Of a DNA stretch of 64,000 nt, positions 3,052-42,313 are shown in pieces. A model generated the notes under the pieces. It worked only from the letters and a program-made list of their open reading frames with translations. It was not told where the DNA came from and ran no database searches. Source of the DNA: an uncultured Candidatus Saccharibacteria bacterium (GTDB lineage Bacteria > Patescibacteriota > Minisyncoccia > Phycocordibacterales > UBA2100); contig CAYWZA010000002.1 in NCBI GenBank assembly GCA_964462785.1, positions 1,061-65,060 on the forward strand, in the 5' to 3' direction. The translations under genes were made by a program, and so were the position numbers. The first letter of the stretch is position 1, and every line of letters starts with the position of its first letter.

Positions 3052-6000
3052 ATGAGTGCATTAGTATTTTTATATTTGGCACAACATATGTTTAAAAAGT
3101 GGGCGGTGATTGGTGTGGTGCTGGCGTTTCTGGTTCCGCTCGCCACCTCAGCAAGTGTATTGAGTGAAATGCGTGCTCGTTTAGAACAGCAAAGAGCAGC
3201 GCAAGCCGCACAAGCAGTAGGTGGGGTTGGTGGAAACACCAGCACATTCTCCAATTTTCAAAATCCGCAACCCGTTCCTGTCCCTCCTGTAAACCCCAGC
3301 AAACCAAACACCCCCAACACACTTCCTGATGACTACCCCACAGCAGGAGAGGAGAAACCAGCATGTCCAACACTGACCGTACTCCTGAAACGAGGATCAC
3401 GAGACGCAACAAGTAAAAACCAAGTCACCGAGCTCCAGCTGTTCCTCGCGGAGCACTTTGGGCTAAACGAAGAGGATGTGGTGACCGGCTATTTTGGAAA
3501 GACAACCGCAAGCTATGTGGTGAGGTTCCAACAAGAACAAGGCTTGCCCGCATTCGGCATCGCCGGATCGATGACCCGCGCCGCGATTGCGCGTGTGTGT
3601 GGTGGTCAGGCGACACCAACACCATCTGGTGGAGCACACATCACGCTCGTATCTCCTAATGGGGGAGAAACGTATAACATCGGAGACTCGCTCCAGCTTG
3701 TGTGGAGCGGAAAGAATTTTCCTGCGGGCTCGCAGGTGTGCGGTACGCTGACGACAGCCGCAGGCGGCAGCTTCGCATTTCCACCAACTGGCTCTTGCCG
3801 CGATGTGGGAGGTGGATCAGGAGGCAGTACGCACAAAGGCATTCTTGCAGGCACACTTATCCAAAACCCGGGATACAATCTTGCCACCGGAAGATACACA
3901 GCGAAAATCACACTACTCGGACCATCCACCAACCCAGAAAGAGATCGTCCGACACTCGCGGTTGATACCAGCGACACGCCGATTGTTATTGGCGGCGGAC
4001 AAACAACCCCGTCCCCAAACAACACGATCTTCATACCATCCACAACCCTCGGGGTAGCGCCGCTACAAGTAAAATTCCACATACCGAGCTCTGAAGGTAG
4101 TTTTGTCGACTTTGGCGACGGCACGGACAATGTTATCTGCACCGACAAAGCAGGCGAGTCATGTTCGGTCTCTGGAATAACTCACACATACAACAACCCC
4201 GGAGTGTACACAGCGAAGTTGTATCAATCTGTATATCGATGCACGACTGGCGGCGTGGGGAAAGATGGTTTGCCCGACTCAGGCTGTGGCTACCAAAAAA
4301 CAAGTGTCATTCTGTCCACAGCACAGATCACCGTGACATCATCCACCCAAGGGCCCGGCTTGACCGTAAAAGCCACACTTGAAGATCCTACTGGTAATGG
4401 TAAGGAAGCCTTTGCGTTTGGTGATCAGCTGGTAATAAAATGGTCAGTCGATCCGATATCCGACCTCGAATTAGTTGGTTGGAATGGGTATGCTCCGGAT
4501 ACTGGTATTGAATTGCGACCCTACAACAACCCAACAGCTGCAGGGATCCGAATCGCGCGCGTTAAAGAGAGTGGTGTTTTTCCACACACATTTACATGGA
4601 ATGTGGCGAAAGAAGGGCTCTATGGGGATGTAGTTACATCTGGTAAATATTATGTGTATGTAACTGTTGCATCAAAACAACAAGGAGGGTATCGGGTTGG
4701 TGTCGCGGGGGCAGTGTGGCTTGGGGTAATCCCACCCACGCCACCGAGCACCGGCATCACCGTCACGGCACCAAATGGCGGGGAGCGGTGGGAGCAGGGG
4801 GTGATGAATACAGTTACATGGGCTCCATATAGCTACACACCCACAGTGCAAAACCCATCAAGCGATGTGACGGCGTACCTCGAGCGATGGTCGCTTCTGA
4901 GGGGCTATACCACCGTAGGAAAAGTTGAGGCAAGCGGCAAGGCATCGATTCATTGGATAACCGGAGAGCTTGATTCAGCAACTATGGGCGGCAACTTCGT
5001 GCCACCCGGCGAGTACTACATTCGTGTAGTGAACAATGTGACTGGTGCGACAGATCGTAGCGACAAATCTTTCACCATTGCTCCAAAACCAATCGACTTA
5101 AAAATAAACGGATCTGACGGACCGGTGGTCATCAATAGCGCCACTGATCCGGTCACTGTGTCATGGTCGTCCCCGAGCACGAGCGGTGTGCACACCTGCC
5201 AACTCACCAGTGTTGATCAGCTTCCTTGGTCAAATGTAGTTGCAAGTAGTGGATCAATCAGCAGCCGCCTCAGCTTTGGCACAAACACCAGCACAACAGT
5301 ATATATCCAGTGCATCGTCACCAACACATCAGGTATGGGTGCGCAAGTAACTGATTATGTACAAGTGACCGCAGGCACACCGCAAGCCCCCGTACTCCAA
5401 GTAATAAGCCCCAACGGGGGAGAGCAGCTCGTGGTGGACAAACCATTCACACTTAAATTTAAAACTGCAGGTATTAGCCAGATGTCGATTGCGCTCTACA
5501 AAAATGAGCAGTGGATAAAGTGGATTGGAGAAGCGGCTGGCTTTAACGGAACCGAAGGGGAGGTAAATGGGTATCGCCAGTGGGAATTTAATCCGTCCGT
5601 CACGCTCGGTCCCGCCGAAGCTAGCTCGCTGCCCAGTGCTGGAAATGTCTACAAAATATATGTCACCGGTCAAAAGGCAGATGGCACTGGCTACATTGAT
5701 GACAAAAGTGATGCGCCATTTTCGTTTGTTTCCGGAACGCAAAGTTCATGCACACTCGACGGGGTGACTCTTTCGAATGGAGAACAGGCGATGTTTTACT
5801 CACAAAAAACAGTCGCTGTAGGCAAGATGTGCGGTGACTTTGGGCAGGTGCGCACATGCAACAACGGAGTGTTGTCAGGATCGGCAACGTACCAATACGC
5901 AACCTGTACTGAGCAGACAGTGACTGCACGATCACCGTGGGGCAAGAAGCTTGCTGTCGCTGCCGCCGATATCCCCGATGGTCGCTTCCGCCTGCACGTC

Positions 6001-11948: not shown

Positions 11949-13379
11949 ATGTACGCAATGCGAATACCACTCAGCATTCTACTCAGCGTGATTGTTGCGG
12001 GAGCTTTCGCTGTGCATCATGCAGCCGCGCAAGAGACCGCGGGACAGGTGGATAGCTCGAATAAAATTTGCGCCAGCTGGTGGAAGCAGTGTGAGGGGAA
12101 ACCTTGTGCATCAAACCCGCCCGCATGCTCTCAGCAAATAACAGGGGGTTCCGCATCCGGTCATTGCAAAGGACCATTATGCAATGCGGAATCATACACC
12201 GACGCACAAGGTGATACGAAGTCAATCCAAGATGCCATGGGCTTCTTTCAGCAGGCGATGGGCATGATTCAGGGTCTTTTGGGTAAGGGAGGGGGCGCGG
12301 GCGCAGGTGGTGGCGAGGTTCCGCCACCGACGGGCAGCTCAGGATCACTTCCCAACGTGGCTCCTTCACCGGCAGATTTCTTTTCGGGCGCGTCAGGGAG
12401 TGCATCCACTAATCAGAACACTGATACAGAAACGCAAAAAGCCGCTGAAGAACCAAGTGCGACTTTTTTAAACGCAGTCTCCAAAGGATTCAACACTATC
12501 ACTGACAAAATTACTGAAGTGACGGTTGGTATTACCGAAAAGGCGCCTACGAAAACGGATGAAAGTACAAAGACAATAGACGCGACGCGCCCAGACACCG
12601 AGAAAGGCACCGGCACCAGCGCGACGACCCCCAAAAAAGAAAGCAGCGGCGTATCTGGTTTTTATAATGCAAATACATTTGGTCCGAATGCCGATCTTTC
12701 GCTTATCGGTCGTGTGTGCGAGACGCGCCCGTGGGCAGCAGGACTCATCGCACGTTTCGTCGCACCATCATTTTTTGACAGCATGTGTAGCAAAGGGGGA
12801 TACCACGTTGGACCGTATGATCCAGCGACCCAAGTGCCGGTGAATGCCACCGAGATGGTGCAGTCGGCGAGAGAGCGCGCCGCTGCAGAGCAGGCGCTTA
12901 ATGCGCGCGGAGAGATGCAAAAAGGTATTCGCTGCGCACCGGTCATTATCCGCCAAGGGGCGGAGGCGGCGCTGGAATTTTCCTGCGGCACTGGTGAGCG
13001 TTTACTGCGCGCTGTCGGCTTCAGAGCGGGGGTCAACGATAGTAGGGTGATTGTCCGCCCGGAGAAGACCACGGTATATGGCATACAGTGCTCGAATAAT
13101 TTTGAGGCAGCATGTGAAGTGAAGGTTGTGAACCCGCGCGTGGTGGTGTGGTCAGAACCAAAAACAGTTCGCCTCGGGTCGCGCGCGGTCATTCGCTGGA
13201 ATACGCAGGATGTTGAAAAAGGATCATGCACCGTGAAAGGAAATAGCTTCTCGCAAACAGGCGAGCGTGGTGGTGCATCCACCGTCCCCATCACTGGAGC
13301 CACTCCCTTCACTGCAACTTGCACCGCACTCGACGGGCAGCCGATCACCGAAACTCTCACTGTCGATTTGGCGCTATAG
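11949..13379 (+). CDS. Secreted paralog-family protein P2 (476 aa)
   Basis: It has a signal peptide, the motif CASWWKQCEGKPC, the segment MGMIQGLLGKGGGAGAGGG, the GRVCETRPW...FFDSMC motif and a C-terminal twin domain. The architecture is the same as P1. Confidence 0.7.
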   Translation: MYAMRIPLSILLSVIVAGAFAVHHAAAQETAGQVDSSNKICASWWKQCEGKPCASNPPACSQQITGGSASGHCKGPLCNAESYTDAQGDTKSIQDAMGFFQQAMGMIQGLLGKGGGAGAGGGEVPPPTGSSGSLPNVAPSPADFFSGASGSASTNQNTDTETQKAAEEPSATFLNAVSKGFNTITDKITEVTVGITEKAPTKTDESTKTIDATRPDTEKGTGTSATTPKKESSGVSGFYNANTFGPNADLSLIGRVCETRPWAAGLIARFVAPSFFDSMCSKGGYHVGPYDPATQVPVNATEMVQSARERAAAEQALNARGEMQKGIRCAPVIIRQGAEAALEFSCGTGERLLRAVGFRAGVNDSRVIVRPEKTTVYGIQCSNNFEAACEVKVVNPRVVVWSEPKTVRLGSRAVIRWNTQDVEKGSCTVKGNSFSQTGERGGASTVPITGATPFTATCTALDGQPITETLTVDLAL

Positions 13380-13405
13380 AAAATAGTGGTATATTATGGG
13401 CGCAT

Positions 13406-13478
13406 CCGCCCTTAGCTCAGTTGGTAGAGCAGCTCCCTTTTAAGGAGTTGGTCGTTGGTTCGAATCCAACAGGGCGGA
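13406..13478 (+). tRNA. tRNA-Lys (anticodon TTT)
   Basis: A manual cloverleaf fits. The acceptor stem CCGCCCT pairs with AGGGCGG. The D-arm is GCTCAGTTGGTAGAGC, the anticodon loop is CTTTTAA and the T-arm is GTTGGTTCGAATCCAAC. Confidence 0.8.
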
Positions 13479-13486
13479 CATGACAG

Positions 13487-13513
13487 AAAAACCTGCACTG
13501 ATGCAGGTTTTTC
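13487..13513 (+). terminator. Rho-independent terminator after tRNA-Lys
   Basis: The hairpin is aaaacctgca, loop ctga, then tgcaggtttt, followed by a T-run. Confidence 0.7.
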
Positions 13514-13584
13514 GGTACATGTCCGAGCCGCAGCGCGACCAAAGTTTCTTCGAGTGAAGCGAGTTAGAAACTGGGAGTACTCCT

Positions 13585-13705
13585 GTGGTGATGTTTTTGT
13601 TTGCCGGAGCGAAGCGCAGGCAAGGCAAAAACCGCGAGGCGGGTGAGCTGCGAATACTTGCAGCAGCGCAAGACCTTTTGAGCGATTTTGGAGTGCGCCA
13701 GCACG
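13585..13705 (+). repeat. tRNA-linked structured repeat element, copy E1 (degenerate, downstream of tRNA-Lys)
   Basis: The core gatgtttttgtttgccggagcgaagcgcaggcaaggcaaaaaccgcgag is about 94% identical to the core downstream of tRNA-Arg-TCT at 42107. A second hairpin (gcgattttg...caaaatcgc) follows. Confidence 0.6.
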
Positions 13706-13776
13706 AACAAAATCGCCAAAAGGTGTACAGGTCATGTAATGACCGCGACCGAGCGCGCGAGAGTTGTGACAACAAA

Positions 13777-14163
13777 CTATAACGGCAAATCAAACGCAAA
13801 CGCACCCGGACCGGTGATCATGACTGAGAAAGACATTACCAAAAGAAGGAGTGTGGTGCTCAAAGGGAAAGGTCGAGCGGGGCGACCGAGTATGAGCCAT
13901 GCGAGAGTGAGCAGTACACCCAAAAGAGCGCCAAGCTGTGCGTAAGAGCCGAGCATAAGGGAGAGGGCGCATGCGCACTCAAGCAACGCCATGATGTACG
14001 CGAGGGGAGATCGAATACCGCGCGCGTGGATGTATGCCGCGAGTGCAAATACCACCGCCGCTGCAGCGCGGATGATAAGCGCGGAGAGTGGGGTAAGAAA
14101 CAAGAGCTCAGGAAACATGCTCAACATGCACATATCGTAGCATGATGATAAGGTGGGGTGCAT
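13777..14163 (-). CDS. Hypothetical small integral membrane protein (128 aa)
   Basis: The ORF is strongly hydrophobic with several predicted TM segments. No recognisable family was found. It overlaps the start of the next gene by 11 nt. Confidence 0.3.
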   Translation of the reverse strand: MHPTLSSCYDMCMLSMFPELLFLTPLSALIIRAAAAVVFALAAYIHARGIRSPLAYIMALLECACALSLMLGSYAQLGALLGVLLTLAWLILGRPARPFPLSTTLLLLVMSFSVMITGPGAFAFDLPL

Positions 14164-18849: not shown

Positions 18850-18861
18850 TAGCTCGCTCAA

Positions 18862-18896
18862 AGAGAAAGCCGCCCCCAAGGGGCGGCTTTCTCTTT
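18862..18896 (+). terminator. Rho-independent terminator
   Basis: The hairpin is agagaaagccgcccc, loop caag, then gggcggctttctct, followed by Ts. Confidence 0.75.
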
Positions 18897-18953
18897 GACG
18901 GAGTTTGCGAATTGTTTATGGTCACAACTCGCGCCGGCTTCCGCCGGCTCGTT

Positions 18954-19142
18954 CGTGTCCCCTCGGCCGGAATCGGTCACGAATAAATCGCCTGACGGCG
19001 ATTTTTCGCTACCCCGGCTCGCGGTTTTTGTCTCCCCCTCATTTCATTCGGGGAAACAAAAACATCGCTGCGCCTTTCGATTCCGGACGCACAGTGCTCA
19101 AGCGCTATGCTCCGAGGGGACAGTTTTCGCTTCGCTCACGTG
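18954..19142 (-). repeat. tRNA-linked structured repeat element, copy E2, with a perfect 22-bp duplicate of the tRNA-Arg 3' end at its distal border
   Basis: The 22-mer cgtgtcccctcggccggaatcg occurs at 18954-18975 and again at 19139-19160. The second copy is the 3' end of the minus-strand tRNA plus 4 trailer nt. On the minus strand the interior holds the core gcagcgatgtttttgttt, hairpin 1, aaaaaccgcgagccgggg, hairpin 2 (aaatcgccgtcaggcgattt) and tcgtgacc. Confidence 0.7.
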
Positions 19143-19214
19143 TCCCCTCGGCCGGAATCGAACCGACATTACAACCTCCGCAAGGTCGCGTCCTATCCAT
19201 TGAACGACGAGGGG
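19143..19214 (-). tRNA. tRNA-Arg (predicted anticodon GCG, an unusual isoacceptor)
   Basis: The reverse complement folds as a cloverleaf. The acceptor CCCCTCG pairs with CGAGGGG. The D-arm is GTTCAATGGATAGGAC, the anticodon stem is CGACC/GGTTG, the loop is TTGCGGA and the T-arm is GTCGGTTCGATTCCGGC. Confidence 0.55.
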
Positions 19215-21793: not shown

Positions 21794-21969
21794 AGAGCTT
21801 GTTGAAAAACCCGGGTTCCCTAGCCGAGCGGTGCGGTTTCCGTCGCGAGACACTTCGGCGGAGGGCGAAATGTGCTGGTGGCACATTGAGACCGAGCCGA
21901 ATGTGTCGCAGCAGGAAACCGTACCGCGCAGGCAGGCAGGGAGGGGTTTTGAGACATGCTCTGGCCCCA

Positions 21970-21998
21970 TTGATTTTTCACGATACTTGGTGTATAAT
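21970..21998 (+). promoter_or_regulatory. Sigma70-type promoter (TTGATT, 17-bp spacer, TATAAT), copy 1 of a duplicated promoter
   Basis: The promoter region gccccattgatttttcacgatacttggtgtataatta shares about 40 bp of identity with 25583-25620 (2 mismatches). Confidence 0.65.
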
Positions 21999-22046
21999 TA
22001 AAACAGGCTGCGAGGGGACGCAGCGAATTTTGGAAAGGGAAAAAAG

Positions 22047-25545: not shown

Positions 25546-25589
25546 ACTAACGCAGAGAATTCCTTTTATCAACAGGGTTTTTAGCCCCA

Positions 25590-25618
25590 TTGATTTTTCA
25601 CGATGTTTGGGGTATAAT
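25590..25618 (+). promoter_or_regulatory. Sigma70-type promoter, copy 2 of the duplicated promoter
   Basis: The promoter region gccccattgatttttcacgatgtttggggtataatta has TTGATT, a 17-bp spacer and TATAAT. Confidence 0.65.
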
Positions 25619-25667
25619 TAACATGGTGCCCTGGAAAGGAATGGGGCGGAAACAGAAGGTAAAACAG

Positions 25668-26089: not shown

Positions 26090-29000
26090 ATGGTACGCGT
26101 TTTATGCGGGTTAATCTTTGTATGCACACTCGCATCTTTTGTCCACACAACCTCAGCACAAGCTCAAAGTAAAAATTGTACGCCCGGGGGTACCTGCAGC
26201 ACCGAATTGGAAGGGGATACTACCACCACCGTTAGTGCCGGAGAAGACAAGGGTACCGCCACACAAGATACGCAACAGACAGGAAGCTGCACAAAAGAGC
26301 TGCAAGCGGCAGGAAAATGTAAGCCGGAGTGTCCAAAAGTAAACTATTCGAGTGTAACCGGTGGGATTGTCACCTGCTACAGCGAGGTGAGCGACAGCTG
26401 CTATATGAATGATAACGCCGGCACTGCTGAGTGTTCGAGTGACGAGATGCAAAAAATTATTGACGGGAAAACTCCTCCGCAAACTACCGATTACGTAGGT
26501 ACGCCGGGGTCACAGAGTGGCTCCTCTAGTGGGGTTCAAAGTCCTGAGATCGAAGCACAGAAGGCATTGCGCGACGCGGAATATAAGTTGGCACAGGCAC
26601 AAAAAAATTATGATCAGTGCTGGTGGGGTTGTGCTGATGAAAAAGCGGCGCTTGAGCAAGCTCAACAAACACGCGATGCAGTGCAAGATTCTGCAGATTA
26701 TCTTAACGAAATTGCCAATAAACCACCCGGTACCTACATACCCGAAACCCCATTGAATACAGCGTTGCAAAATAGTTGGGCTAACAATGTATTGCAACAG
26801 CCCGCACCGGCAGTAACAGAGAGTCGCTTGGGCGATTTCGGTAGCGGATTACGCGAAGCGCTCAGTCCTGATTCTTTTTCGAACTCAGCCTTTCGAGATC
26901 AGTGGAACGGGTGGAATCCAAACGTAACACCGAGCGACGGGGCGTTCAATCGTTTTGATTTTGGAAATAATAGCGGATTCAACTCATTTGGGCAGTCGGT
27001 CGGCAGTGATATTTCTGGAGGGCTGAGTGCTGGTCCGAGCTCATTCACTCCTTTTTCTTTTGACAGTGGCTTAACTGGGAGCCCGTACGATGGGTCCGCC
27101 CCGTTCGAGCCATTCGACTATGAAACTTCCCCCATCGGACCGGGTTGGGGGAATGACGACCTCGGAAAACTATCAAATTTCGATTTCTCGAATGCGCCGC
27201 TGCAGCCAAGCACTCTGCAAGATCTATCGAATTTAAATAACGGGTTATTACCCACACTCCCCAGTGTTTCAGATCCACTTGGTGCCCTGAAAAGTTTGGA
27301 TTCGGAGCAACTTCCTACGGTGTCAGATGCTCAATCACCGAATGATTTTCTTGGACTCAAGGCTATCGCAGAGCAACAACCGCCTGAAGGCAGCGGATTG
27401 AGTGCCGAGGATTTCAGCGAGCGCCTCGAAGTGTTTAAAAAAGGATTCGGCAATGTGGTGGACAGCCTCACTGAGGGGGTGCAGGGTATTTTTGCGGGAG
27501 ACATCAGCGCACCTGATTTTTGGGATAAAACACTTAAAAATATCGGCGTTGGTGTCAACGCTGGTTTGGGTGAAGGGGGAGTACGCCTCGGCGGCATCCT
27601 CGACTACTCTCCGCTAAGCGATGGCGGGCTATTGCCTGGTCTGCGGCAGACGGTCAAAGACGTGTTTGGGTGGGGAAGTGATGTCGCGACACCACCCGAG
27701 ATACCATCGGGGATACAAGGCGGCGGAGCGCTGACCGCAGGTGAGTCATATCGGCGAGAGCTCGATGCTGCGAAACAAGCATCCGCAGCTGCGGGCGAGC
27801 GCGCACGGCGAGCAGACGAAAACGCTCGCAGCACGGGATCCTATGATCCAGACAATGCCTTTGAAGTGGAAAGATACAATGCGGCGCAGGCAGAAATAAA
27901 AGCCGCACGTGAGGAGCAAGCAGCTGCGCAAGCGCGGCTTGCGGCAGCACAGGCGGATGTTGATCGTATCCGCGCGCGCGACAACCAAGTCCCCGGGCAG
28001 GGGAGCATTGCGAATACGGGCGTGAATGAAGCTAAGGTGGTGGCAGATTCGGGCGTACGCGATACACAGGGAACAGAAAGTCTTGCGTACCAGCGTGCAG
28101 CAAAAGACTACCAGGCATTATTACCCCTCGCGGCTCCGGTTACCAACGCTCTGCAAGACGCGAATAGCGCCTGGATAAAACGAGCTGAAGAAATAGGGCT
28201 CATTGAAAATATCGGAACAGCTGATAAGCCGCAATATCGAATACGCCCTGAACTCACGGAAACGCAACGGATCAATAAAATGGGAATGCTGCGCGACGAG
28301 ACCGATCGTCTCAATTTGGCAAAAGATCAATACAAGACATATGCAGAGACGCTCAAAGATGCTCGCGACAAAACTCTGTATGCGGCAGGTGCAGATCCGT
28401 TGTTTTCGGACGCCGCGCGGGCAAATGCACTTTTGGGCGATATGCGTCTAAGACCTGAACAAGAAATACCCATTGATGAATATTGGCAAGACAAAAATGG
28501 ACTGGCAATGGGAGTGGGCGCAGCGGGAGCTATGGGAAGATATGTTCTTAGAATGGATCCTTATCAACCAGTCATCAACTCAAATGCGCAAGAAATTGCA
28601 TTTAATGAACTGCAGGCAAAACAAGAAGCACTCATTCAATCATTAGCGGGATGTACCGACTGTCAAAATGTTATTGAAGCGATTGAACGCAACAATGAAC
28701 TTGCAAAACAATTTGAAAGCGGACAGTTTGAGGGAGCGCAAAAAGACTATCTCATAAAACTTTCAGACCAAAACCCTATTCAAAGGGATCTTCCAGTAGG
28801 GGATTTAACCACACAAGAATTAGCTTCGCGGGCAAGCAATGAATGGGGAAGGCTGCTCCGCGGTACGCAAGAATATCTTGGCGCGGAAATGGGTAAGGCG
28901 TGGGAGGAGGGAGAATATGGCAAAGCAACAGCTCTTTTCTTGCTACAAACCCCAGGGCAGATCACACAAGGCTTGCTCGGGGCTGAGTCGCTCCAAGGAC

Positions 29001-32000
29001 TTGGGCAAACACTATATGGTGCTGACACCAGTATTCTCGGGCTGACAATTCCCGGAGGGGAAGCGGGCTATAATATTGTAAGAAATGTCACCGATGCAGG
29101 GACTTTATCTGTAGTTACGGGTGCCTACTTATTTCCAGGACCGGCAGGGTTAGCACTAAGGGGAGCTGATAGCCTTGCCGCCAGCGCGGGGCGCTTTGCG
29201 GGTAACATTGCGGACGTCAGATCCGCCTTGAATGTTGCCGATAGTGGAGCGGGCTTTGGGTATGATTTTTCAGGGCGACCATCGGCGGATGCAATCATTC
29301 GTGATGGGGGCTTAGCAGTGGTACCCGAGAACAACATATCTACTGCGCCCGCGCGTGATGGTGGCTCAAGTCCTCCGCCTCAATTAACCTCGAACGCACC
29401 ATCTCCCACATCACGCTCCGTCACTCAACCCCCTCCATTGCGTAATGAATTCTCACCCACAGGTGGTGCGCGCACCAGTGGCAATGCGGTGCAAGGAGCG
29501 CCCCCCTCCGCCTCATTTATTCCAGGGACTTCGCCGCTCGGCGATCTTGCAGACGCAATGCGTCGAGGATCACCGACACTGATCACCCCGTCTAATTTCG
29601 GTCGGACCGGCGACGACGTTCTCTTCGGTGGTGCGGCGAATGACAATCTAATGGGCTCTACTCCTGCCGGAGGTCCGCCTTTGGAAAATAGGTGGTTTGC
29701 ATTTGCGCGCGCTCCCGAGGATGGAGGGGGAGCGGGGCGTGGAGGCACGATCATACCGTTTACTCCACGAGCGTCCGAGCTCCCAAGTGTCGGCGGTGGG
29801 GACACTATTGTATTTAGAGAAGGTTTTGGCAGTGATGCACCACCAGCTCGCGTGGACGCAGGTGCTATTGATGACGCGACACTGCGTGAGCTCGAAAACA
29901 TTCTCGCGAACGAGCCGGATCAATTTGTGTTTCGTACTGTTGATGATGCCGTCACACCCGATGGCGTGACAGATCTGTTGCAGCGCCGATACGGAGGAGC
30001 ATCTCTAGAGGAAATCGCAAAAGCACGGGAGGCAATACGGCTGAATGAAGCTGCCCGTCGTCTTGATTCTCAAAACACTTCGCAGGCAACCGCGGATGCA
30101 AGCACTTTGCGTGCCCGCGCTGCACAAATCGCAACCGACATCAATGATCCTGCTTTGGGTAGATTGGCTGAATCGTGGGGAGGGGAAAGAGCGCCGAGCG
30201 CAGCAGGTGCTGGCGTTCCAGATAGTGTCGTTGCAGCAGAGGCGGCACAGCCAAAACCCGCTTCTGGAATTTTATCCCCCATTACCAACACTCCATTCGC
30301 AAGAGCGTTGTGCGTTATAGGTGGCTTGTTCTGTGGGTCGCAAGCTGTTCCTGGGCAGTTGGTAAACGATCTCAATCCGTTGGGTATAAGTTCGGCAAAT
30401 GCAAAGCCGGCAGCGCTTCCGGTCCAATTAGTGCATGACGGTGTCTTGGGGGTTGAGACAGGTGCGGCGTCGACATACAACCCGAATGTGGTCGGGTGGA
30501 GAACGGGTGGGGAAAAACTTGCAACAGGCGGAAGATACAATCCCGATGAATTTGAAGCTGCGCTACAGACAGGATTGGCGGAACAGTATCGAATGGGGCA
30601 CAGCAGATACCCCAATGTCGGGTACGCGCTTGTGGAAGCGGAAGGCAGAAAACTTATTGTACGCATTAATGACAACGGTCCATTAGTTCGCAATCGCATC
30701 ATCGATCTCAACGAAGCCTCGATGCGCTATTTAAGTGGTGGTAGATATGGCAACAATTCGGGAGTATTGCAAAATACACGAGTAACTGTTTTGGCAGGAC
30801 AAAACTATACGCCGGGACCGCTTGCGAATGATGCCACTCTTCTCGCTCGGGCTGAAATACCGCCCGCAAGTCCAACAGCACCTCGCATAGAAACAGGATC
30901 ACTGAGCGCCCCTAAGTCAGCGGTGGATTCCGCAGTTGATGAAATTACAAAAAGGGCGGAGCAGGTGGGTGACGCTGTTAGAAAAGCAGGCGATGATCTT
31001 GCGAAAGCACTCGATATACGCCCCGGCACTCCGGAAACTGACTTCATGAAAAACGTGCAAGGGAAATTAGTGGAAACACCACCACCAGCGGCATTGATCA
31101 AAAATTTTGACGTTAACAATCACACTTCCGCAGAAGCAAGAGCGGTCCAGGAGGCGCTTAGAGCCCAGGGGTATGACACAGCTGTTGATGGAGTTATCGG
31201 TCCGCAGACAATACGCGCGCTCGAAAGCGCGAGAGTGGATATTGATGGTGCGTTGCGCAATATTTTCACAGACCAAGCTGACTATCAGCAAGCGCGCAGG
31301 ATATTCCTCGAAAGATTTAAAGGTATGCCCAAAAATTTTGAGCAACCACTGCTCACCATGTTGCGAAAGATGCAAGAGGCTGGTCAGGCGCTGCCCGGCG
31401 ATAATCAGCCGATCGTGCTGGTTAACGTAAGCGGAAGCAGAGAGGGGGTTGCCATTATGTCGCTCACACACAACGACGGGCTCCTTCTTTGGGAGGGAAG
31501 TCCGACACTCAGAGTCGGCGTAGCAGCTAATGGCCCGATTGATTGGGCAAAAGATTTTATTGGCTCGAACAAAACGATAGTGGGCTCAGTAGCAAAAATT
31601 ATTGGTGGGGAACATCGTGGAGACAAGGCTTGGGCAGTGGGCGCGCTTTATCGGGAGTCAATAGATGGGGGATTACAGAACGAGAGAGTCACATGGTATC
31701 ACGGAGTTTCTAATCGCGCCGTTACACCAGGCCAGCGCCCCAACGCAACATCGGGGTGTGTTTCAATGTGTTCTCTAGTGATGCAAAATTTGTATGATCA
31801 AGTGCTGGGAACCCCTGGTGTGGGGGAACCGGGGTGGCAACTCGCAGGTAGAGATGGGGCAGTGCGGGGAGCAAATAAGATTAACGGGGGATATACGTAT
31901 GAATTTTCTGAGCAAGTGACAAACAGCGTTGGTGTTGCAGAAAATAAGGCAATTGCCCAGAAAGAGCCGGTGATGGTTGCTGATGCTGCGCCAGGTGGTG

Positions 32001-34447
32001 GTGCGACTCAGGGTCTTACTCCTGAAACCGCCGAAATCGCTCGGGTGTATGAGATATCCGGAGAGACTGGAACGATACCAAAGGGAGCGATCCTTGAGGT
32101 GAGCCCGGATGGAAAAACATTAACCTATGGCGAGACCGTGTACCAAGCAAAACAGATTTCTGGAGAACCGATTCCGCTAGAACCCGCATCAGCACTTTCA
32201 ATTATAGATTTGAAACCTTTACAAGTGGACTGGCTAGACAGAATACAGATTGAAGGCGTTCCGAAGCTGGGACTAGAACTTCAGGTGTGGCGACCAGATT
32301 TCAACGCCGCGGTTGAAAATGTGATGCGGGGGGTCAATGATGGCATCTCTGAATTCAAACAAATCGTCAGTGGCGTACCCGGCGACATATCAAAATGGGT
32401 TTCTAGAAACAGCTTTAATGTCAGTGTTAGTCTTGAACCGAATCCGGCATGGCTTAAAGCGGTTGGAGATAGTGCTAATACTGCTGCAGAGCGAATAACA
32501 ATAATGTATCGGGACGCATATGCTGCTTTGGACGACTTCCCGTCAGCACCTCCCACGCCAGGTGACCCATTATTCGGTCTATTCGCCTTGGGTAGCACGC
32601 GACGCACATCAAATGCACCATCCCAAACACCAATACCCGAGGGGGTAGACACTCCGCCCGCAGGACTTGGGTTGCAGGCACCACCTTCAAAAATAGCAGG
32701 CACGGGTGATACACAGAAATTTGTACCTACCTCGCGCAACATTAATCCAGCACCGGTACGCGCGATTGATGATATTCCCGCACCGACAGATGGCGTAACT
32801 CCGCCATTGTCACGGACTCAACCTGATGTTACTGAGGGTATGAGTAAATCTGGTCGCACGGGAGGAGCTTCGATCACTGATGACACTGCCACAAACGGGA
32901 CAGTGCCCGCGAAACAAGACACTCCGCCCGCAGGACTTGGGTTGCAGGCACCACCTTCAAAAATAGCAGGCACGGGTGATACACAGAAATTTGTACCTAC
33001 CTCGCGCAACATTAATCCAGCACCGGTACGCGCGATTGATGATATTCCCGCACCGACAGATGGCGTAACTCCGCCATTGTCACGGACTCAACCAGTTGGT
33101 GATTCCGCTGCGAACATGACAGAACTCATGAGCCGAAGCGCACAGCAAAGTGCGCCAGCCACAGCCGCTTCAGTGGGTGCCATGAAGAAAGTTTCAAATA
33201 CAATCCGCGCTTGTGTAAATGGGGGATGGACGACGGCGAAGTGTGCGGGTGTTGCAATAGTCGCAACGTGGGCTGGGACATGCGCACTAACGGGGTACGA
33301 CGGTGTTCCATGCAATTGGCAAGGGACAAGGACAGGCACATGCATATCGGACGGAGGGAGGAAATGTGTTACAGGAGCATCCCCAGGAGCGGATGCAACA
33401 AAAGATGGTACAGAAAAAACACCACCTGCGGATACAGATAAAGACAGAACTGGCGCAGGCGCACCTCCACCAGATGATACAGGCGCAGGGAGGAGACCGC
33501 CTCCAAGTGCCCAGACGCCACCCAATAGTGGCACTGCAGCACCTACACGCACCACACAAGGAGGATCGGGTGGAAGTGGTCTTGGTGGATTGATGGGAAT
33601 GCTCGGGCAATTTATGCAGATGCTTACCGGGCAGGGAGCGCAAGAGCCAGATGCATCACCAACAGGATCGCCTAAGGCACCGACAACAGTGACTCTCTCC
33701 TGCGATCCGTCAATTATTCTCAATCGTGGCACGACAACGATTCGCTGGGCGTGCTCAGGTAATGAGCGCAGTACGGGAGTGAATTTCGATACACGCGGCG
33801 CGCCGTCGGGATCGGTGGAGCGGGGTATTGATACCATCGAGCAGAGCATGCAATTTGGCGTTTCGTGTGGCGGCAGCGCGCCGCGCAGCTGCTCAGTGCG
33901 CGTACTGCACCCGCGCATCACACTCACCGCATCTCCGGGCGAAGTGGAAAGCGGCACGCACGCACGACTCAATTGGGCTGGAGTGGGCGTGCGATCATGC
34001 GGAGTGCTCGCGCCTACCTCAAATGAAATTGCGCGCGGGACGGCGACAGGATTTGTCGACACGCCCGATCTCACACGCTCACAGCGCTTTGCGGTGGTCT
34101 GCTCTACTGATGCAGGCAAGCCTGTGCATGAATTCATTACCGTGCGCGTCGCAGGCGATGACACGGATCCGGAAGTAGTGGAGATTCCTGAAGCGTATAT
34201 GCGCACCACGCCTTCCTCCGCGGCGTCAGCGCTGCCCACCGCAGTGAGCGATCTGCCCTCAGAAGAGGGGAGTAGTTTCTTCGATGGTTCTGCAAATACT
34301 CCATCGCCCAGCGCACCACAAGAGCCGATCACACCGCCCCCCGGCACGTTCACCGCAACTGATGCTCAAGGCAACGCCGTCTTCCTCTGTGATCCTGAAG
34401 CAGGTATTGATACCTATATTTCGTGCATATCCGGAGGAAGGTGGTAG
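26090..34447 (+). CDS. Giant secreted multidomain protein P5 (2785 aa) with coiled-coil regions, a PG_binding_1 domain, a YkuD-like L,D-transpeptidase fold, an RlpA-like double-psi beta-barrel, an internal exact repeat and the family C-terminal twin beta-domain
   Basis: Signal peptide is MVRVLCGLIFVCTLASFVHTTSAQA. The RlpA/DPBB-like segment is TGGRYNPDEFEAA...LIVRINDNGPLVRNRIIDLNEASMRYL. The PG_binding_1 segment is TSAEARAVQEALRAQGYDTAVDGVIGPQTIRALE. The YkuD-like segment is WYHGVSNRAVTPGQRPNATSGCVSMCSLVMQNLYD. The Gly/Met motif is GGSGGSGLGGLMGMLGQFMQMLTGQG. The C-terminal 200 aa align with P1, P2 and P4. Confidence 0.8.
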   Translation: MVRVLCGLIFVCTLASFVHTTSAQAQSKNCTPGGTCSTELEGDTTTTVSAGEDKGTATQDTQQTGSCTKELQAAGKCKPECPKVNYSSVTGGIVTCYSEVSDSCYMNDNAGTAECSSDEMQKIIDGKTPPQTTDYVGTPGSQSGSSSGVQSPEIEAQKALRDAEYKLAQAQKNYDQCWWGCADEKAALEQAQQTRDAVQDSADYLNEIANKPPGTYIPETPLNTALQNSWANNVLQQPAPAVTESRLGDFGSGLREALSPDSFSNSAFRDQWNGWNPNVTPSDGAFNRFDFGNNSGFNSFGQSVGSDISGGLSAGPSSFTPFSFDSGLTGSPYDGSAPFEPFDYETSPIGPGWGNDDLGKLSNFDFSNAPLQPSTLQDLSNLNNGLLPTLPSVSDPLGALKSLDSEQLPTVSDAQSPNDFLGLKAIAEQQPPEGSGLSAEDFSERLEVFKKGFGNVVDSLTEGVQGIFAGDISAPDFWDKTLKNIGVGVNAGLGEGGVRLGGILDYSPLSDGGLLPGLRQTVKDVFGWGSDVATPPEIPSGIQGGGALTAGESYRRELDAAKQASAAAGERARRADENARSTGSYDPDNAFEVERYNAAQAEIKAAREEQAAAQARLAAAQADVDRIRARDNQVPGQGSIANTGVNEAKVVADSGVRDTQGTESLAYQRAAKDYQALLPLAAPVTNALQDANSAWIKRAEEIGLIENIGTADKPQYRIRPELTETQRINKMGMLRDETDRLNLAKDQYKTYAETLKDARDKTLYAAGADPLFSDAARANALLGDMRLRPEQEIPIDEYWQDKNGLAMGVGAAGAMGRYVLRMDPYQPVINSNAQEIAFNELQAKQEALIQSLAGCTDCQNVIEAIERNNELAKQFESGQFEGAQKDYLIKLSDQNPIQRDLPVGDLTTQELASRASNEWGRLLRGTQEYLGAEMGKAWEEGEYGKATALFLLQTPGQITQGLLGAESLQGLGQTLYGADTSILGLTIPGGEAGYNIVRNVTDAGTLSVVTGAYLFPGPAGLALRGADSLAASAGRFAGNIADVRSALNVADSGAGFGYDFSGRPSADAIIRDGGLAVVPENNISTAPARDGGSSPPPQLTSNAPSPTSRSVTQPPPLRNEFSPTGGARTSGNAVQGAPPSASFIPGTSPLGDLADAMRRGSPTLITPSNFGRTGDDVLFGGAANDNLMGSTPAGGPPLENRWFAFARAPEDGGGAGRGGTIIPFTPRASELPSVGGGDTIVFREGFGSDAPPARVDAGAIDDATLRELENILANEPDQFVFRTVDDAVTPDGVTDLLQRRYGGASLEEIAKAREAIRLNEAARRLDSQNTSQATADASTLRARAAQIATDINDPALGRLAESWGGERAPSAAGAGVPDSVVAAEAAQPKPASGILSPITNTPFARALCVIGGLFCGSQAVPGQLVNDLNPLGISSANAKPAALPVQLVHDGVLGVETGAASTYNPNVVGWRTGGEKLATGGRYNPDEFEAALQTGLAEQYRMGHSRYPNVGYALVEAEGRKLIVRINDNGPLVRNRIIDLNEASMRYLSGGRYGNNSGVLQNTRVTVLAGQNYTPGPLANDATLLARAEIPPASPTAPRIETGSLSAPKSAVDSAVDEITKRAEQVGDAVRKAGDDLAKALDIRPGTPETDFMKNVQGKLVETPPPAALIKNFDVNNHTSAEARAVQEALRAQGYDTAVDGVIGPQTIRALESARVDIDGALRNIFTDQADYQQARRIFLERFKGMPKNFEQPLLTMLRKMQEAGQALPGDNQPIVLVNVSGSREGVAIMSLTHNDGLLLWEGSPTLRVGVAANGPIDWAKDFIGSNKTIVGSVAKIIGGEHRGDKAWAVGALYRESIDGGLQNERVTWYHGVSNRAVTPGQRPNATSGCVSMCSLVMQNLYDQVLGTPGVGEPGWQLAGRDGAVRGANKINGGYTYEFSEQVTNSVGVAENKAIAQKEPVMVADAAPGGGATQGLTPETAEIARVYEISGETGTIPKGAILEVSPDGKTLTYGETVYQAKQISGEPIPLEPASALSIIDLKPLQVDWLDRIQIEGVPKLGLELQVWRPDFNAAVENVMRGVNDGISEFKQIVSGVPGDISKWVSRNSFNVSVSLEPNPAWLKAVGDSANTAAERITIMYRDAYAALDDFPSAPPTPGDPLFGLFALGSTRRTSNAPSQTPIPEGVDTPPAGLGLQAPPSKIAGTGDTQKFVPTSRNINPAPVRAIDDIPAPTDGVTPPLSRTQPDVTEGMSKSGRTGGASITDDTATNGTVPAKQDTPPAGLGLQAPPSKIAGTGDTQKFVPTSRNINPAPVRAIDDIPAPTDGVTPPLSRTQPVGDSAANMTELMSRSAQQSAPATAASVGAMKKVSNTIRACVNGGWTTAKCAGVAIVATWAGTCALTGYDGVPCNWQGTRTGTCISDGGRKCVTGASPGADATKDGTEKTPPADTDKDRTGAGAPPPDDTGAGRRPPPSAQTPPNSGTAAPTRTTQGGSGGSGLGGLMGMLGQFMQMLTGQGAQEPDASPTGSPKAPTTVTLSCDPSIILNRGTTTIRWACSGNERSTGVNFDTRGAPSGSVERGIDTIEQSMQFGVSCGGSAPRSCSVRVLHPRITLTASPGEVESGTHARLNWAGVGVRSCGVLAPTSNEIARGTATGFVDTPDLTRSQRFAVVCSTDAGKPVHEFITVRVAGDDTDPEVVEIPEAYMRTTPSSAASALPTAVSDLPSEEGSSFFDGSANTPSPSAPQEPITPPPGTFTATDAQGNAVFLCDPEAGIDTYISCISGGRW
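32648..33093 (+). repeat. Exact 176-bp direct repeat (period 270 bp) inside the giant gene
   Basis: The segment 32648-32823 matches 32918-33093 with no visible mismatch. Each encodes DTPPAGLGLQAPPSKIAGTGDTQKFVPTSRNINPAPVRAIDDIPAPTDGVTPPLSRTQP. The ORF track shows identical antisense ORFs over both copies. Confidence 0.85.
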
Positions 34448-34563: not shown

Positions 34564-35040
34564 TCAAAATCCAAAAAACTCTGCGAGGGTGTATATAAAT
34601 GACTGATGCAATTCTATTTCCGGCACGCGCTCTGCGAGAAATGCGCGCACCATATTCGGATCAACATCAGTAAGGGGAATGATCAGATCGGGATTCATAA
34701 TACGGGGCGTGTCAATTAATAGTGTCGGCTCGTCATCCTCGCTCACCCAGAATGCGCGCATTTCTTCATAGGGGTAGAACGTATCTCCCACAGCAAGCCC
34801 GCGCTCACCGAGCGCGAATTCAACAACGGCGGGCGGGCGCTTTGCCAGCATGCCGAGCGTGACCCCTCCGAGCACGATAAGCAGTGCGAAGAGCACATTA
34901 TTCAGCAGCACCGCAGTCAGTGCGGAGGACATGATGATAATACCGAGCGCCCAGTACCAATCACTGCCGCGCTCTATGTGTTGGTGTTCTTGACCAGACC
35001 ATGTGATCGTTTCGTTCATGGAGTGATGGTATTCCCGCAC
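34564..35040 (-). CDS. Hypothetical membrane protein (158 aa)
   Basis: There are two hydrophobic helices near the N-terminus and no recognisable family. The ORF overlaps the pilin gene's stop by 25 nt, so the true start may be the internal MNETITW. Confidence 0.4.
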   Translation of the reverse strand: MREYHHSMNETITWSGQEHQHIERGSDWYWALGIIIMSSALTAVLLNNVLFALLIVLGGVTLGMLAKRPPAVVEFALGERGLAVGDTFYPYEEMRAFWVSEDDEPTLLIDTPRIMNPDLIIPLTDVDPNMVRAFLAERVPEIELHQSFIYTLAEFFGF

Positions 35041-35432
35041 CCTTCCGAATATCCTTTGATGGTATCCGTCTCAAGACAAAATGAAATAGTAAATGAAGAT
35101 CCGTTTGCGGGTGTTACATACGTATAATCCTGCACGGGGGAAGCCGGATCATGCGGGACGGCATTAATGACTCCGGCATTTTCGAGCACCGTTGAAAGAC
35201 CGTCTTCGCCAGTGATATCAATCGGGGTGGTCGTGATGGGGAAAACACCGCCGCTTGTCACGGCATACGATGCAAGTGATTTTGCAATCGTGTTTACATC
35301 AGATATGCGTCGCGCGTCGCGTCCGCGTTTTTGTACCGCGCCAAAAGATGCCATGGCTACGGCGCTCAAAAGCCCGATGATGGCGATCACCACTAAAAGC
35401 TCAATCATCGTAAATCCACGTCGGGGTTCCAT
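35016..35432 (-). CDS. Type IV pilin / pseudopilin (prepilin with N-terminal methylation motif)
   Basis: The N-terminus MEPRRGFTMIELLVVIAIIGLLSAVA is the class III signal, with Gly-Phe-Thr-Met-Ile-Glu and a hydrophobic helix. A C-terminal Cys pair is present. Confidence 0.8.
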   Translation of the reverse strand: MEPRRGFTMIELLVVIAIIGLLSAVAMASFGAVQKRGRDARRISDVNTIAKSLASYAVTSGGVFPITTTPIDITGEDGLSTVLENAGVINAVPHDPASPVQDYTYVTPANGSSFTISFCLETDTIKGYSEGCGNTITP

Positions 35433-39366: not shown

Positions 39367-40542
39367 ATGACAGTGGATTATGCCGCATATCCGGCATATT
39401 TTGCCTATATAATTGTATGTATGAACGACTTCTCGTGTCGCTGTGAACTGCCGCCACTCAAATCGCGCGGTTTCCTCGACCGGTGGTTTCCACTTCCCAA
39501 CGTGCTGTTTCCCCGCGCAGCGGGGGTGGATATATCTGACAGCTCAGTCAAATGGCTTTCGCTGGAACAAACCCCGCGAGGCTTTCATGTGCGCGCATTC
39601 ACTCAGGTAGCTCTTGAACCGGGGATTGTGGTAGAGGGCATTGTGCGCGATGAGGAAAAACTGGCGCAAGCCATACGCACACTACACGCGCAAGCGCGGA
39701 CGGGGTCATATGTACATGCGGCACTTCCCGAAGAAACCGGCTTTGTATTTACGATGCACGTTGTTGGTCTCGGCAGCAGAGAACAAGTATTGCGCATGAT
39801 CGAATTTGAGATTGAAGATCACGTGCCATTGCCGATTGATAGCATTGTCTACGATTACGATGTCATCAGCCTGCATTCGGGCGATGAGGGGGCTGAAATT
39901 AGCGTGACCGCGTTTCCGAAGTCGATCGTCGAAAGTTATGTTCAGGCGTTCGATCGCGCGGGAATGAAGCTCCTTTCGCTTGAATCTGAGGCAAGCTCAA
40001 TCGTGCGCTCGGTGTTGCCCGCGCACAGCAAGGATGTTGTCCTCATCGCAGACTTTGGACGCGCCCGCACGGGCATCATTATCGTGAACCGCGGTGTCCC
40101 CATTTTCACCTCAACCGTGAGTGTGGGGGGAGATGCCATGACGAAAGTCATCATGGAAACCATGTCGGTTGATGCCGATAAAGCGGAAGAGTTTAAGAAT
40201 GAACATGGTATTGCGCGCGATGGAGACAAGCGCGTTGTCGAGGCGATTGCTGGCACTGCCGGTGCGCTTGCTGATGAAATTGCGAGACACTTTTCATATT
40301 GGGACACGCGGCGCGATGAGCATGGTCGGCGGGTGACGCCAGTTGCGCGCGTGATTTTAACCGGCGGGAGTTCGAATCTAAAAGGACTCGATGAGTATGT
40401 TGCGGGCAGAGTGCGCGCGCCGGCAGGGCATGCACACGTATGGCAGAACGTGTGCTCATTTGATGAATACATTCCGCCGATTGATTCGCATCATGCTCTC
40501 GGGCTTTCAACGGGCATCGGGCTTGCTCTGCGCGGTATCTGA
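39367..40542 (+). CDS. pilM: Type IV pilus assembly protein PilM (actin-like ATPase fold)
   Basis: GVDISDSSVKWLSLE near the N-terminus, GGDAMTKVIM and VILTGGSSNLKGL match PilM/FtsA-like motifs. The gene is followed directly by pilN- and pilO-like genes. Confidence 0.75.
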   Translation: MTVDYAAYPAYFAYIIVCMNDFSCRCELPPLKSRGFLDRWFPLPNVLFPRAAGVDISDSSVKWLSLEQTPRGFHVRAFTQVALEPGIVVEGIVRDEEKLAQAIRTLHAQARTGSYVHAALPEETGFVFTMHVVGLGSREQVLRMIEFEIEDHVPLPIDSIVYDYDVISLHSGDEGAEISVTAFPKSIVESYVQAFDRAGMKLLSLESEASSIVRSVLPAHSKDVVLIADFGRARTGIIIVNRGVPIFTSTVSVGGDAMTKVIMETMSVDADKAEEFKNEHGIARDGDKRVVEAIAGTAGALADEIARHFSYWDTRRDEHGRRVTPVARVILTGGSSNLKGLDEYVAGRVRAPAGHAHVWQNVCSFDEYIPPIDSHHALGLSTGIGLALRGI

Positions 40543-41969: not shown

Positions 41970-42041
41970 TGCGTACATTGCCCTCGTAGTTTAATGGATA
42001 AAACTCCGGACTTCTAAGCCGGCTATCGAGGTTCGATTCCT
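41970..42041 (+). tRNA. tRNA-Arg (anticodon TCT)
   Basis: The acceptor GCCCTCG pairs with CGAGGGC. The D-arm is GTTTAATGGATAAAAC, the anticodon loop is CTTCTAA and the T-arm is CGAGGTTCGATTCCTCG. Confidence 0.75.
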
Positions 42042-42285: not shown

Positions 42286-42313
42286 AGGAATGAGCTACTC
42301 GCCTATAGGCGGA

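Follow-up and report, generated by a model that had tools for sequence, protein, structure and literature searches.

A probable degenerate copy of a small structured tRNA-gene insertion element behind tRNA-Lys in a Candidatus Saccharibacteria contig

The region downstream of tRNA-Lys

The stretch analysed here, called the window throughout, comprises 64,000 nucleotides (nt) of contig CAYWZA010000002.1 (positions 1,061 to 65,060) from an uncultured Candidatus Saccharibacteria bacterium. It contains a tRNA-Lys gene that is directly followed by E1, a structured segment whose core recurs behind a tRNA-Arg gene of the same window (E3), and which an earlier note had taken for a probably decayed insertion. 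E1 very probably belongs, as a degenerate member, to a family of small tRNA-linked copies that share a scaffold of helix P1, hairpin 1 and hairpin 2. Two types of copy are distinguished below by their junction with the tRNA gene, the T-loop type and the 3'-end type, and E1 is of the latter. Its parts are as follows:

13406–13479, plus strand: tRNA-Lys (anticodon ttt), the target gene of E1 (ARAGORN; Rfam tRNA, 73.5 bits)
13475–13525, plus strand: long hairpin (from the sequence, the minimum free energy (MFE) fold and a layout as in other 3'-end-type copies)
13526–13534, plus strand: linker AGCCGCAGC (from covariation of helix P1 in the family and the fold of E1)
13535–13589, plus strand: extra insert of 55 nt between linker and hairpin 1 (from comparison with 73 aligned copies and the fold)
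13590–13638, plus strand: hairpin 1, the core, intact, GATGTTTTTGTTTG..GCGAAGC..CAAGGCAAAAACCGCGAG (46 of 49 positions identical to E3)
13639–13744, plus strand: region in place of the canonical hairpin 2 (from the covariance-model alignment and the fold)
13755–13776, plus strand: remnant GCGCGAGAGTTGTGACAACAAA, similar to the decayed second unit after E2 (GCGCGAGTTGTGACCATAAACAAT), another copy in the window (from the sequences)

The long hairpin uses the final bases of tRNA-Lys (CGGAC followed by A) as its 5' foot, and its 3' foot, a' (TGTCCG, 13520–13525), is complementary to these bases; at its apex the hairpin resembles a terminator (CCTGCA-CTGA-TGCAGG-TTTTT). In the linker, GCC (13527–13529) forms the 5' strand of helix P1, with GGC at 13638–13640 as its partner. 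The linker abuts GATG in the 73 aligned copies, none of which contains the 55-nt insert of E1. This insert forms small hairpins of its own (AGTTTCT...AGAAACT; GGAGTACTCC), and no second copy of it was found elsewhere in the window. A promoter scan revealed no promoter-like site in the interior of E1; the one nearby, at 13368–13397, precedes tRNA-Lys.

The 49-nt core (13590–13638, also written GATGTTTTTGTTTGCC..GGCAAGGCAAAAACCGCGAG) agrees with E3 (42107–42154) at 46 of 49 positions, that is, at the 94% identity already given in the earlier note, and alignment with 42107–42159 yields 92.6% over 54 nt with one gap. A 51-nt core pattern has a single exact copy in the window, at 13589–13639, and the core is unique there at up to three mismatches (chance expectation 0; no match in 100 shuffles). 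The enlarged hairpin 2 that had been described also holds: the canonical structure of about 40 nt is replaced by about 100 nt with three hairpins (13647–13664, 13674–13723 and 13730–13744), the last of which (GGTCAT..ATGACC) resembles the foot of a normal hairpin 2 (GGTCGC..GTGACC). The remnant at 13755–13776 adjoins the stop codon of a convergent open reading frame (ORF), 13777–14163. As a whole, E1 folds much better than shuffled sequences (z = -8.2).

Three syntenic relatives (about 50% protein identity) have the gene order 476-amino-acid (aa) gene, tRNA-Lys-ttt, 117-aa gene, SpoU and Mur ligase. In these relatives tRNA-Lys is followed only by a simple terminator-like hairpin and the intergenic gap is about 160 nt; the distance from the tRNA to the next gene is 44 nt in one relative, L118, versus 297 nt in the window. 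Since the convergent ORF ends at residues (...FAFDLPL) that are conserved in its homologues and the gap in the relatives is short, 13480–13776 is extra DNA, and E1 is an insertion at the tRNA-Lys locus. The ORFs called over it, 13585–13782 on the plus strand and 13440–13805 and 13412–13735 on the minus strand (65–121 aa), gave no match in a Pfam scan, and the region is absent from the syntenic relatives, in line with the previous judgement that they are not genes. The idea that 13500–13800 encodes a protein, or that its likeness to E3 arose by chance, can practically be dismissed on the grounds of the missing Pfam match, the absence from relatives and the zero shuffle matches.

With regard to the tRNA 3' end, no convincing duplicate had been noticed behind E1, and none emerged here: the best local alignment of 13450–13490 to 13640–13830 scored 14.0, with a shuffle mean of 13.9. 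The same test gave 44 for E2 (22 of 22 positions) and 37 for E3 (25 of 27). An apparent match to the tRNA-Lys trailer at 13818–13829 was discarded, as it falls within the conserved ORF and its score is no better than chance.

A covariance model of the scaffold, R1, was built from 73 copies and run unfiltered over the whole window. It gave four clear matches, namely E3 (96.4 bits), E2 (89.6 bits), E1 (41.6 bits) and a copy after tRNA-Val (35.9 bits), the score of E1 being low because its hairpin-2 part misfits. The hairpin with a', P1 and hairpin 1 are preserved in E1, which has gained the 55-nt insert, has lost the canonical hairpin 2 and is without a flanking repeat. These features, together with its status as extra DNA relative to the relatives and a score less than half that of E2 and E3, bear out the earlier reading of E1 as a decayed insertion; E1 is probably an immobile copy. 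When metagenomes were scanned for close relatives of the E1/E3 core, one locus emerged, L121, with a tandem array of the 3'-end type after tRNA-Arg-cct. No tRNA-Lys copy was among the matches, and the decay of E1 can therefore not be dated.

The family, its copies and its scaffold

The exact core pattern was scanned in one genome per species, and all counts given here are among the matches listed. At least 124 copies were found in at least 117 loci of Elusimicrobia and Patescibacteria genomes. Most of the loci are from gut and rumen Elusimicrobia, including the cultured Parelusimicrobium proximum, and the remaining ones from Saccharibacteria, Adlerbacteria, Lloydbacteria and other Patescibacteria, with near-identical cores in the two distant phyla. 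A tRNA gene on the same strand lies within 600 nt upstream of 111 of the 124 core matches and within 140 nt of 91 (median 91 nt), and 8 more matches are too close to the edge of the locus to judge. The distance from the tRNA gene is 55–140 nt in nearly all cases, and the tRNAs concerned represent 30 anticodon classes. The orientation of the element is always that of the tRNA, and copies are attached to only some tRNAs of a genome. The loci L091 and L109 are from the cultured Parelusimicrobium proximum Dip518, whose genome is complete (NZ_CP015019.1).

The T-loop type is the usual unit in Elusimicrobia and is also that of E2. Its left part consists of the tRNA up to C56, tRNA positions 57–76 (the working copy), a trailer that often includes an intrinsic terminator, the arm a2', hairpin X with the conserved top AA-CTGC-TT, and the arm a1'; its right part consists of the linker, hairpin 1, hairpin 2 (loop GTCA), a second tRNA 57–76 and the native trailer. 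The arm a2' is complementary to the 3' strand of the acceptor stem and a1' to T54–G64, so that the two jointly form a reverse complement that extends from T54 to the 3' end of the tRNA (plus 0–3 bases). The 3'-end type, to which E1, E3 and several further copies from Patescibacteria belong, has its junction at about position 72/73; here the complement consists of the 5–7 nt closing a terminator-like hairpin, and only ACA and a few bases are repeated. The left flank at the junction is TTC in the T-loop type and CGG, GGC or TCC in the 3'-end type. The scaffold measures about 100 nt, the element about 100–190 bases without an ORF inside, and a tandem unit about 165–200 nt. Tandem arrays occur in L117 (three units with a 201-nt period) as well as in L007, L039, L060, L090 and L121, and decayed or nested remnants were seen after E2, after E3 and in L013.

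At least four copies reside in the window, E1 and E3 on the plus strand and E2 and the tRNA-Val copy on the minus strand; the latter came to light from the trailers of all seven tRNAs of the window. Besides E1, the following were recognised:

18956–19214, minus strand: E2, a complete T-loop-type copy (from the sequence, the R1 model, the MFE fold and alignment of the duplicate), with tRNA-Arg-gcg 19214–19142, a2' 19123–19112, hairpin X 19111–19087, a1' 19086–19076, linker 19075–19067, hairpin 1 19066–19018, hairpin 2 19014–18975 and displaced tRNA 3' end 18974–18956 (19 of 19 positions, or 22 of 22 with flanks)
18858–18943, minus strand: putative decayed second unit after E2 (R1 10.6 bits, E = 0.82, alone no better than chance)
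41980–42197, plus strand: E3, a 3'-end-type copy (from the sequence; R1 96.4 bits), with tRNA-Arg-tct 41980–42052, hairpin 42048–42097 including a' (TGTGCC) at 42092–42097, linker 42098–42106, hairpin 1 42107–42154 and hairpin 2 42155–42197
42198–42290, plus strand: stretch after E3 with a hairpin-2-like 3' end (..TAGTGACC), a displaced tRNA-Arg 3' end (42226–42244, 25 of 27 positions with flanks) and a second hairpin with TGTGCC
43941–44198, minus strand: fourth copy, after tRNA-Val-tac (44198–44125), also seen as repeat D6 (R1 35.9 bits, E = 1e-6), with a1' GGGACGAGAA, linker AGCCGGAG, a different hairpin 1, a canonical hairpin 2 (scaffold 44063–43968) and a displaced tRNA 3' end within 43967–43941

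The core repeat match of E2 covers 19074–19006 on the minus strand, and its MFE fold (-95.8 kcal/mol) has the expected junction architecture. The stretch at 18858–18943 is read as a decayed unit because of its position and its resemblance in sequence, and the hairpin-2-like end after E3 (..TAGTGACC) may be the leftover of an older unit of the T-loop type. Scaffold-less hairpins were also noticed. Behind tRNA-Leu-gag (window 48344–48500) and behind the tRNA-Lys of a relative, L120 (4411–4470), the trailer hairpin ends in a complement of the tRNA end, that is, of its last 6–9 bases (GTGCCC; GCTTGTCCG), and no scaffold follows; such hairpins could be either what a lost element left behind or simply the kind of terminator native to these genomes.

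For 68 copies, RNAalifold predicted X, hairpin 1 and hairpin 2, with compensatory double changes in 22 of 36 pairs. Helix P1 (3 base pairs, bp) joins the linker to the bases right after CGCGA; linker position -7 is paired with post-core position +2 in 100% of the copies, with five pair types, and -8 with +3 in 96%. As modelled, P1 and hairpins 1 and 2 meet in a three-way junction, which makes up the scaffold. All 68 aligned copies have the two U-G pairs of hairpin 1, in a stretch that is fixed by the search pattern. The R1 model also finds copies with other hairpins 1 (GATGTACGAGTTT..GGCGAGTACCGCGAG, and shorter ones) in which the shape is kept, and the base of hairpin 1 covaries (GCG/CGC, GCC/GGC, GTC/GAC). 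Only the tRNA-sense strand is compatible with the GNRA-type loops and with the wobble pairs of the other stems. A loop-loop pairing of CTGC with GCAG or GTCAG was rejected, as no covariation was apparent by eye, and enrichment of the GCGAAGC mini-hairpin was not significant (26 versus 17.8 +/- 4.3).

A structure of this kind might belong to an ordinary, non-mobile RNA gene or cis-element tied to tRNA genes, such as an RNA for processing or termination or a tRNA mimic, in which case E1 would be a divergent working variant. The strong covariation, the GNRA-type loops, the constant orientation along the tRNA and the pronounced structure of E1 (z = -8.2) are what such an RNA would show, and the complementarity of a1' to the intact tRNA, described below, could reflect an interaction with the tRNA transcript. 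We nevertheless consider this explanation unlikely, as syntenic relatives differ in whether they carry the element, tandem arrays as well as decayed copies and nested remnants occur frequently, only some tRNAs per genome carry it, and near-identical cores occur in two distant phyla. Furthermore, the displaced 3' end decays, so that a closed tRNA-like RNA made with the displaced copy is not conserved, the terminator usually stands ahead of the scaffold, no conserved promoter was found, and the element has no Rfam match.

The complementary arm, displaced tRNA ends and mobility

The arm a1' pairs with T54–C56 and with positions 59–63 of the tRNA at 94–100% and with position 64 at 80%, and it tracks the variable tRNA bases 59, 60, 63 and 64. 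G.A/A.G mismatches recur at 57/58, right after the junction, in about a third of the copies. The arm a2' matches its own acceptor strand at 6.1 of 8 positions and that of other tRNAs at 4.4 of 8, and is thus specific but looser than a1'. In 23 loci the intact and the displaced tRNA differ within 57–64; at these differences a1' fits the intact tRNA in 65 of 72 cases, the displaced copy in none and neither in 7. The displaced copy thus decays while the arm is kept, and the complementary arm looks selected, like a guide or a fold-back arm. This argues for an arm that has to pair with an intact tRNA sequence, either by folding back on its own left end or as a guide. A closed tRNA-like RNA that uses the displaced 3' end is disfavoured, given that a1' never follows the displaced copy.

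A displaced tRNA 3' end (at least 15 of 19 positions), starting 36–52 nt after the core and usually at an offset of 42–43, was found in 41 of 88 loci. The commonest length of the direct repeat is 17–24 nt, ending at the tRNA 3' end, and its two copies have different trailers, indicating that a tRNA end and a terminator arrive with the element. Longer direct repeats of 41–84 nt also occur; at two loci their end coincides exactly with the 3' end of X. A 3-bp target duplication of GAA was ruled out by tRNAs with a TTCAA loop (L005), and a role of the tRNA 3' end as a primer-binding site was rejected because the complement runs into the trailer and not into CCA (e.g. L015) and is interrupted by X.

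Repeats of this kind also bear on the possibility that the copies spread only by homologous recombination after DNA uptake, with tRNA 1–56 and the repeated 3' end as arms and with a structure that serves another purpose or none. The repeat usually equals the tRNA 3' end, the trailers differ, the hosts carry type IV pilus and competence-like genes, and modules (X, the hairpin-1 apex, hairpin 2) are shuffled between copies as gene conversion would give. Such a process leaves the conserved scaffold, the covariation and the selected arm unexplained, as well as the origin of new tRNA specificities, and of the explanations considered for the family we find it among the least probable.

The direct repeat of the tRNA 3' end, the regenerated tRNA and the element-borne trailer are likewise the classical signature of tRNA islands, and the copies could be leftovers or miniatures of such islands, moved by a tyrosine integrase on double-stranded att sites with the element as an att arm. 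Integrase-like ORFs do adjoin arrays of the element in L006, L022 and L116. In these loci, tyrosine-recombinase-like ORFs, assigned by sequence motifs (L006 311–1306, L022 1525–2670 and L116 1560–2717), are located directly upstream of a 12–15-nt tRNA 3' fragment, after which the array follows; they look like ordinary islands on the same tRNA genes, with another crossover (at about position 62–64). Their joints at about 62–64 with 12–15-nt repeats differ from 56|57, and such islands occur in 3 of the 117 listed loci. In addition, compensatory changes with G-U pairs on one strand would be unexpected in duplex DNA that serves to bind protein, one scaffold with two junctions (56|57 and about 72|73) and 30 tRNA classes does not suit a single sequence-specific integrase, and the scanned part of the window has no integrase. 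Descent from classical islands is accordingly improbable in our view.

The presence or absence of the insertion at tRNA-Lys, the tandem arrays, the decayed and nested remnants and the tRNA-3'-end repeats with differing trailers lead us to the view that the family is likely a mobile, tRNA-specific insertion element. The explanation as a whole, in which E1 is a degenerate copy of a small, ORF-less, structured element that inserts into the 3' part of tRNA genes, is the one we favour on balance. Beyond the anatomy, the structure, the tRNA association, the insertion polymorphism and the conservation of the arm, we infer a single-stranded form, targeting by pairing and a helper enzyme. A mechanism of this type, which we put forward tentatively as the simplest one to give the product observed, would proceed as follows. 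The single-stranded element (single-stranded DNA or, less likely, RNA) would fold into the junction of P1, hairpin 1 and hairpin 2, and the complementary arm would pair with the tRNA-sense strand across the insertion point, so that pairing sets the site. Strand transfer on the tRNA-sense strand by an enzyme supplied in trans would then insert the unit into the 3' part of the tRNA gene, in the orientation of the tRNA. With a tRNA 3' end that the element either brings along or regenerates, the gene would stay intact, and the old end would be displaced downstream, where it decays.

A more far-reaching and rather doubtful proposal is that the scaffold and the bipartite arm constitute a natural, re-targetable guide module of about 130 nt, whose pairing sets the insertion site for strand transfer, either by an enzyme or by the folded nucleic acid itself. 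The site would then be located 3 nt (T-loop type) or 1–3 nt (3'-end type) from the scaffold-proximal end of the duplex. If true, this would be pairing-programmed insertion unrelated to CRISPR-associated transposons, IS110 bridge RNAs and group II introns.

Several points weigh against the interpretation of E1 as a worn copy of a mobile element. The missing long repeat is weaker evidence of decay than the earlier note assumed, because E1 and E3 are of the 3'-end type, whose intact copies have no more than a short repeat (a few bases, ACA...), and the long tRNA copy near E3 (42226–42244) is situated behind the presumed leftover of an older hairpin 2. Given its z of -8.2, E1 may be described more aptly as remodelled by added hairpins than as eroded, and the strong fold may mean a working variant and not a dead one. 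The invariance of hairpin 1 is partly built in, as the search pattern is fixed on it, and an RNA form and a single-stranded DNA form are indistinguishable from the sequence; the intrinsic terminator that usually stands between tRNA and scaffold argues against abundant co-transcription. Repeat lengths of 17–84 nt fit recombination within homology equally well. No helper enzyme was found, there being no ORF within the element and no integrase, transposase or reverse transcriptase among about 34 scanned ORFs of the window (mostly from 1–44 kb), and neighbourhood clustering of 604 ORFs gave an abundant pilin-like family as the sole recurrent one. No free or circular form was seen. Finally, the interpretation does not account for the way in which three target-derived segments become matched to 30 tRNA classes, and X and hairpin variants that are shared across tRNAs could be due to gene conversion instead of frequent retargeting.

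The pilin-like genes are the commonest neighbours in Elusimicrobia; a relevance to DNA uptake is possible, but coincidence is probable. The window itself has type IV pilus genes at 853–2571, 35016–35432 and 39367–40542 (secretion ATPase, prepilin-type protein and PilM).

Some loci show further arrangements around the scaffold. In L013 (1706–5300), two scaffold copies after tRNA-Val-gac are 3.3 kb apart, and between them are a 391-aa ORF, kinase-type by eye, and two lipoprotein-like ORFs, with no recombinase evident by eye; these interior genes may be cargo trapped between units. In L068, L093 and L099, the a1'/linker part, just upstream of the core, is interrupted by another small element, which has terminal inverted repeats (CAGGGTTGGCAAGG ... 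CCTTGCCAACCCT) and puts about 270–350 nt between X and the scaffold. In L026 (about 3940–4100, minus strand), a 5' part of a pseudo-tRNA-Ala is followed by a short scaffold variant and then by the anticodon-arm-like CTCATTTGCACAAATGAGG, and the scaffold may here be joined at a third tRNA position.

E1 itself is a modest result, a worn copy, and the interest lies in the family. If this is as it appears, many tRNA genes of Elusimicrobia and Patescibacteria carry a tiny passenger that is absent from the libraries and literature searched; it would be the smallest known insertion element specific for tRNA genes, possibly with a target-pairing mechanism of insertion. The copies give rise to spurious ORF calls and to tRNA 3' fragments that may be mistaken for island boundaries in metagenome-assembled genomes. 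Their occurrence in the cultured Parelusimicrobium proximum Dip518 makes the question directly testable.

Two other repeats of the window were recorded. A 38-nt repeat (21964–22001 and 25584–25621, 92% identical) is positioned near the starts of two large ORFs and contains the promoter-like TTGATT-N18-TATAAT. Two direct repeats of 182 nt (32647–33098, 99% identical, 270 nt from start to start) are located inside a 2785-aa ORF (26090–34447).

Comparison with known systems

Searches of the window, E1, E2 and a canonical copy against Rfam 15, at gathering as well as permissive thresholds, returned only tRNA, with all other models far below threshold; the comparison took in ribozymes, tmRNA, Y-like RNAs, HEARO and ROOL/GOLLD. 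The core pattern had no match in viral contigs, nor had the E3 scaffold in phage and plasmid collections, and no description of the element was found in the literature searched, literal core sequences included.

The element resembles tRNA islands and cis-mobilizable elements (CIMEs) in its insertion into the 3' part of the tRNA, the replacement 3' end, the direct repeat from T-loop to 3' end and the tandem accretion. The repeat of the tRNA 3' end beside an intact tRNA is seen in the family, E2 and E3, and is missing in E1. Unlike islands and CIMEs, the element is only about 165–200 nt long and without cargo, shows a conserved, covarying structure on a single strand, contains the reverse complement of its target, and combines one scaffold with 30 tRNA classes and two junctions. 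The unit has no room for an ORF, and the integrase-like ORFs near 3 of the 117 listed loci go with a different junction. The traits of classical miniature inverted-repeat transposable elements are also lacking, since the only inverted segments (a' and the tRNA end) are target-derived and the repeat length varies from 17 to 84 nt.

IS200/IS605 elements, palindrome-associated transposable elements (PATEs) and REP/RAYT systems are strand-specific and built of hairpins, their sites are recognised through internal guide pairing and copies are moved in trans. IS608-type systems use a 4-nt guide and a fixed tetra- or pentanucleotide target, and no target is carried or duplicated. By analogy, the present element is strand-specific and has hairpins and a guide-like complement; it differs in that this complement comprises 11 + 8 nt and is specific for each tRNA, and in that the tRNA 3' end is repeated; no Y1 transposase was found, although no search was aimed at one. 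Whereas PATEs have subterminal hairpins at both ends, the conserved hairpins X and hairpin 2 of the element are near its two ends, on one strand only, and differ in sequence (loops CTGC and GTCA). The fixed 4–5-nt motif without duplication that characterises PATEs was not found, as the flank varies (TTC versus CGG/GGC/TCC) and the tRNA end is repeated.

In attC sites, and in the attP(+) site that CTX-phi uses with XerCD, a folded single strand rebuilds a duplex that resembles the chromosomal site. In the present element, inverted segments may rebuild such a duplex, non-canonical pairs occur by the putative exchange point, and there are arrays: in silico, a:a' restores the duplex of tRNA 54–76, with G.A/A.G at 57/58 in about a third of the copies. 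Exchange of one strand would give the product observed. In contrast to attC and CTX-phi, the site mimics the end of a tRNA gene and is flanked by a conserved three-way junction, with only 3 bp of duplex on one side of the junction.

With the bridge (seek) RNAs of IS110/IS1111 and with H/ACA pockets the element shares two guides that flank a hairpin (a2'-X-a1'), a three-way junction and a continuous target. It deviates from IS110/IS1111 in having no adjacent DEDD recombinase gene and no donor-binding loop and in that both halves pair with the same strand; H/ACA ribonucleoproteins, for their part, are found in archaea and eukaryotes and have RNA as their substrate. A TnpB/Cas12-like reading (a scaffold with a 3' guide and TTC as motif) was rejected, as the intact tRNA would stay a target and the 3'-end type has no fixed motif. 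Taken together, the element is probably a small, structured, non-autonomous insertion element of tRNA genes for which no description was found.

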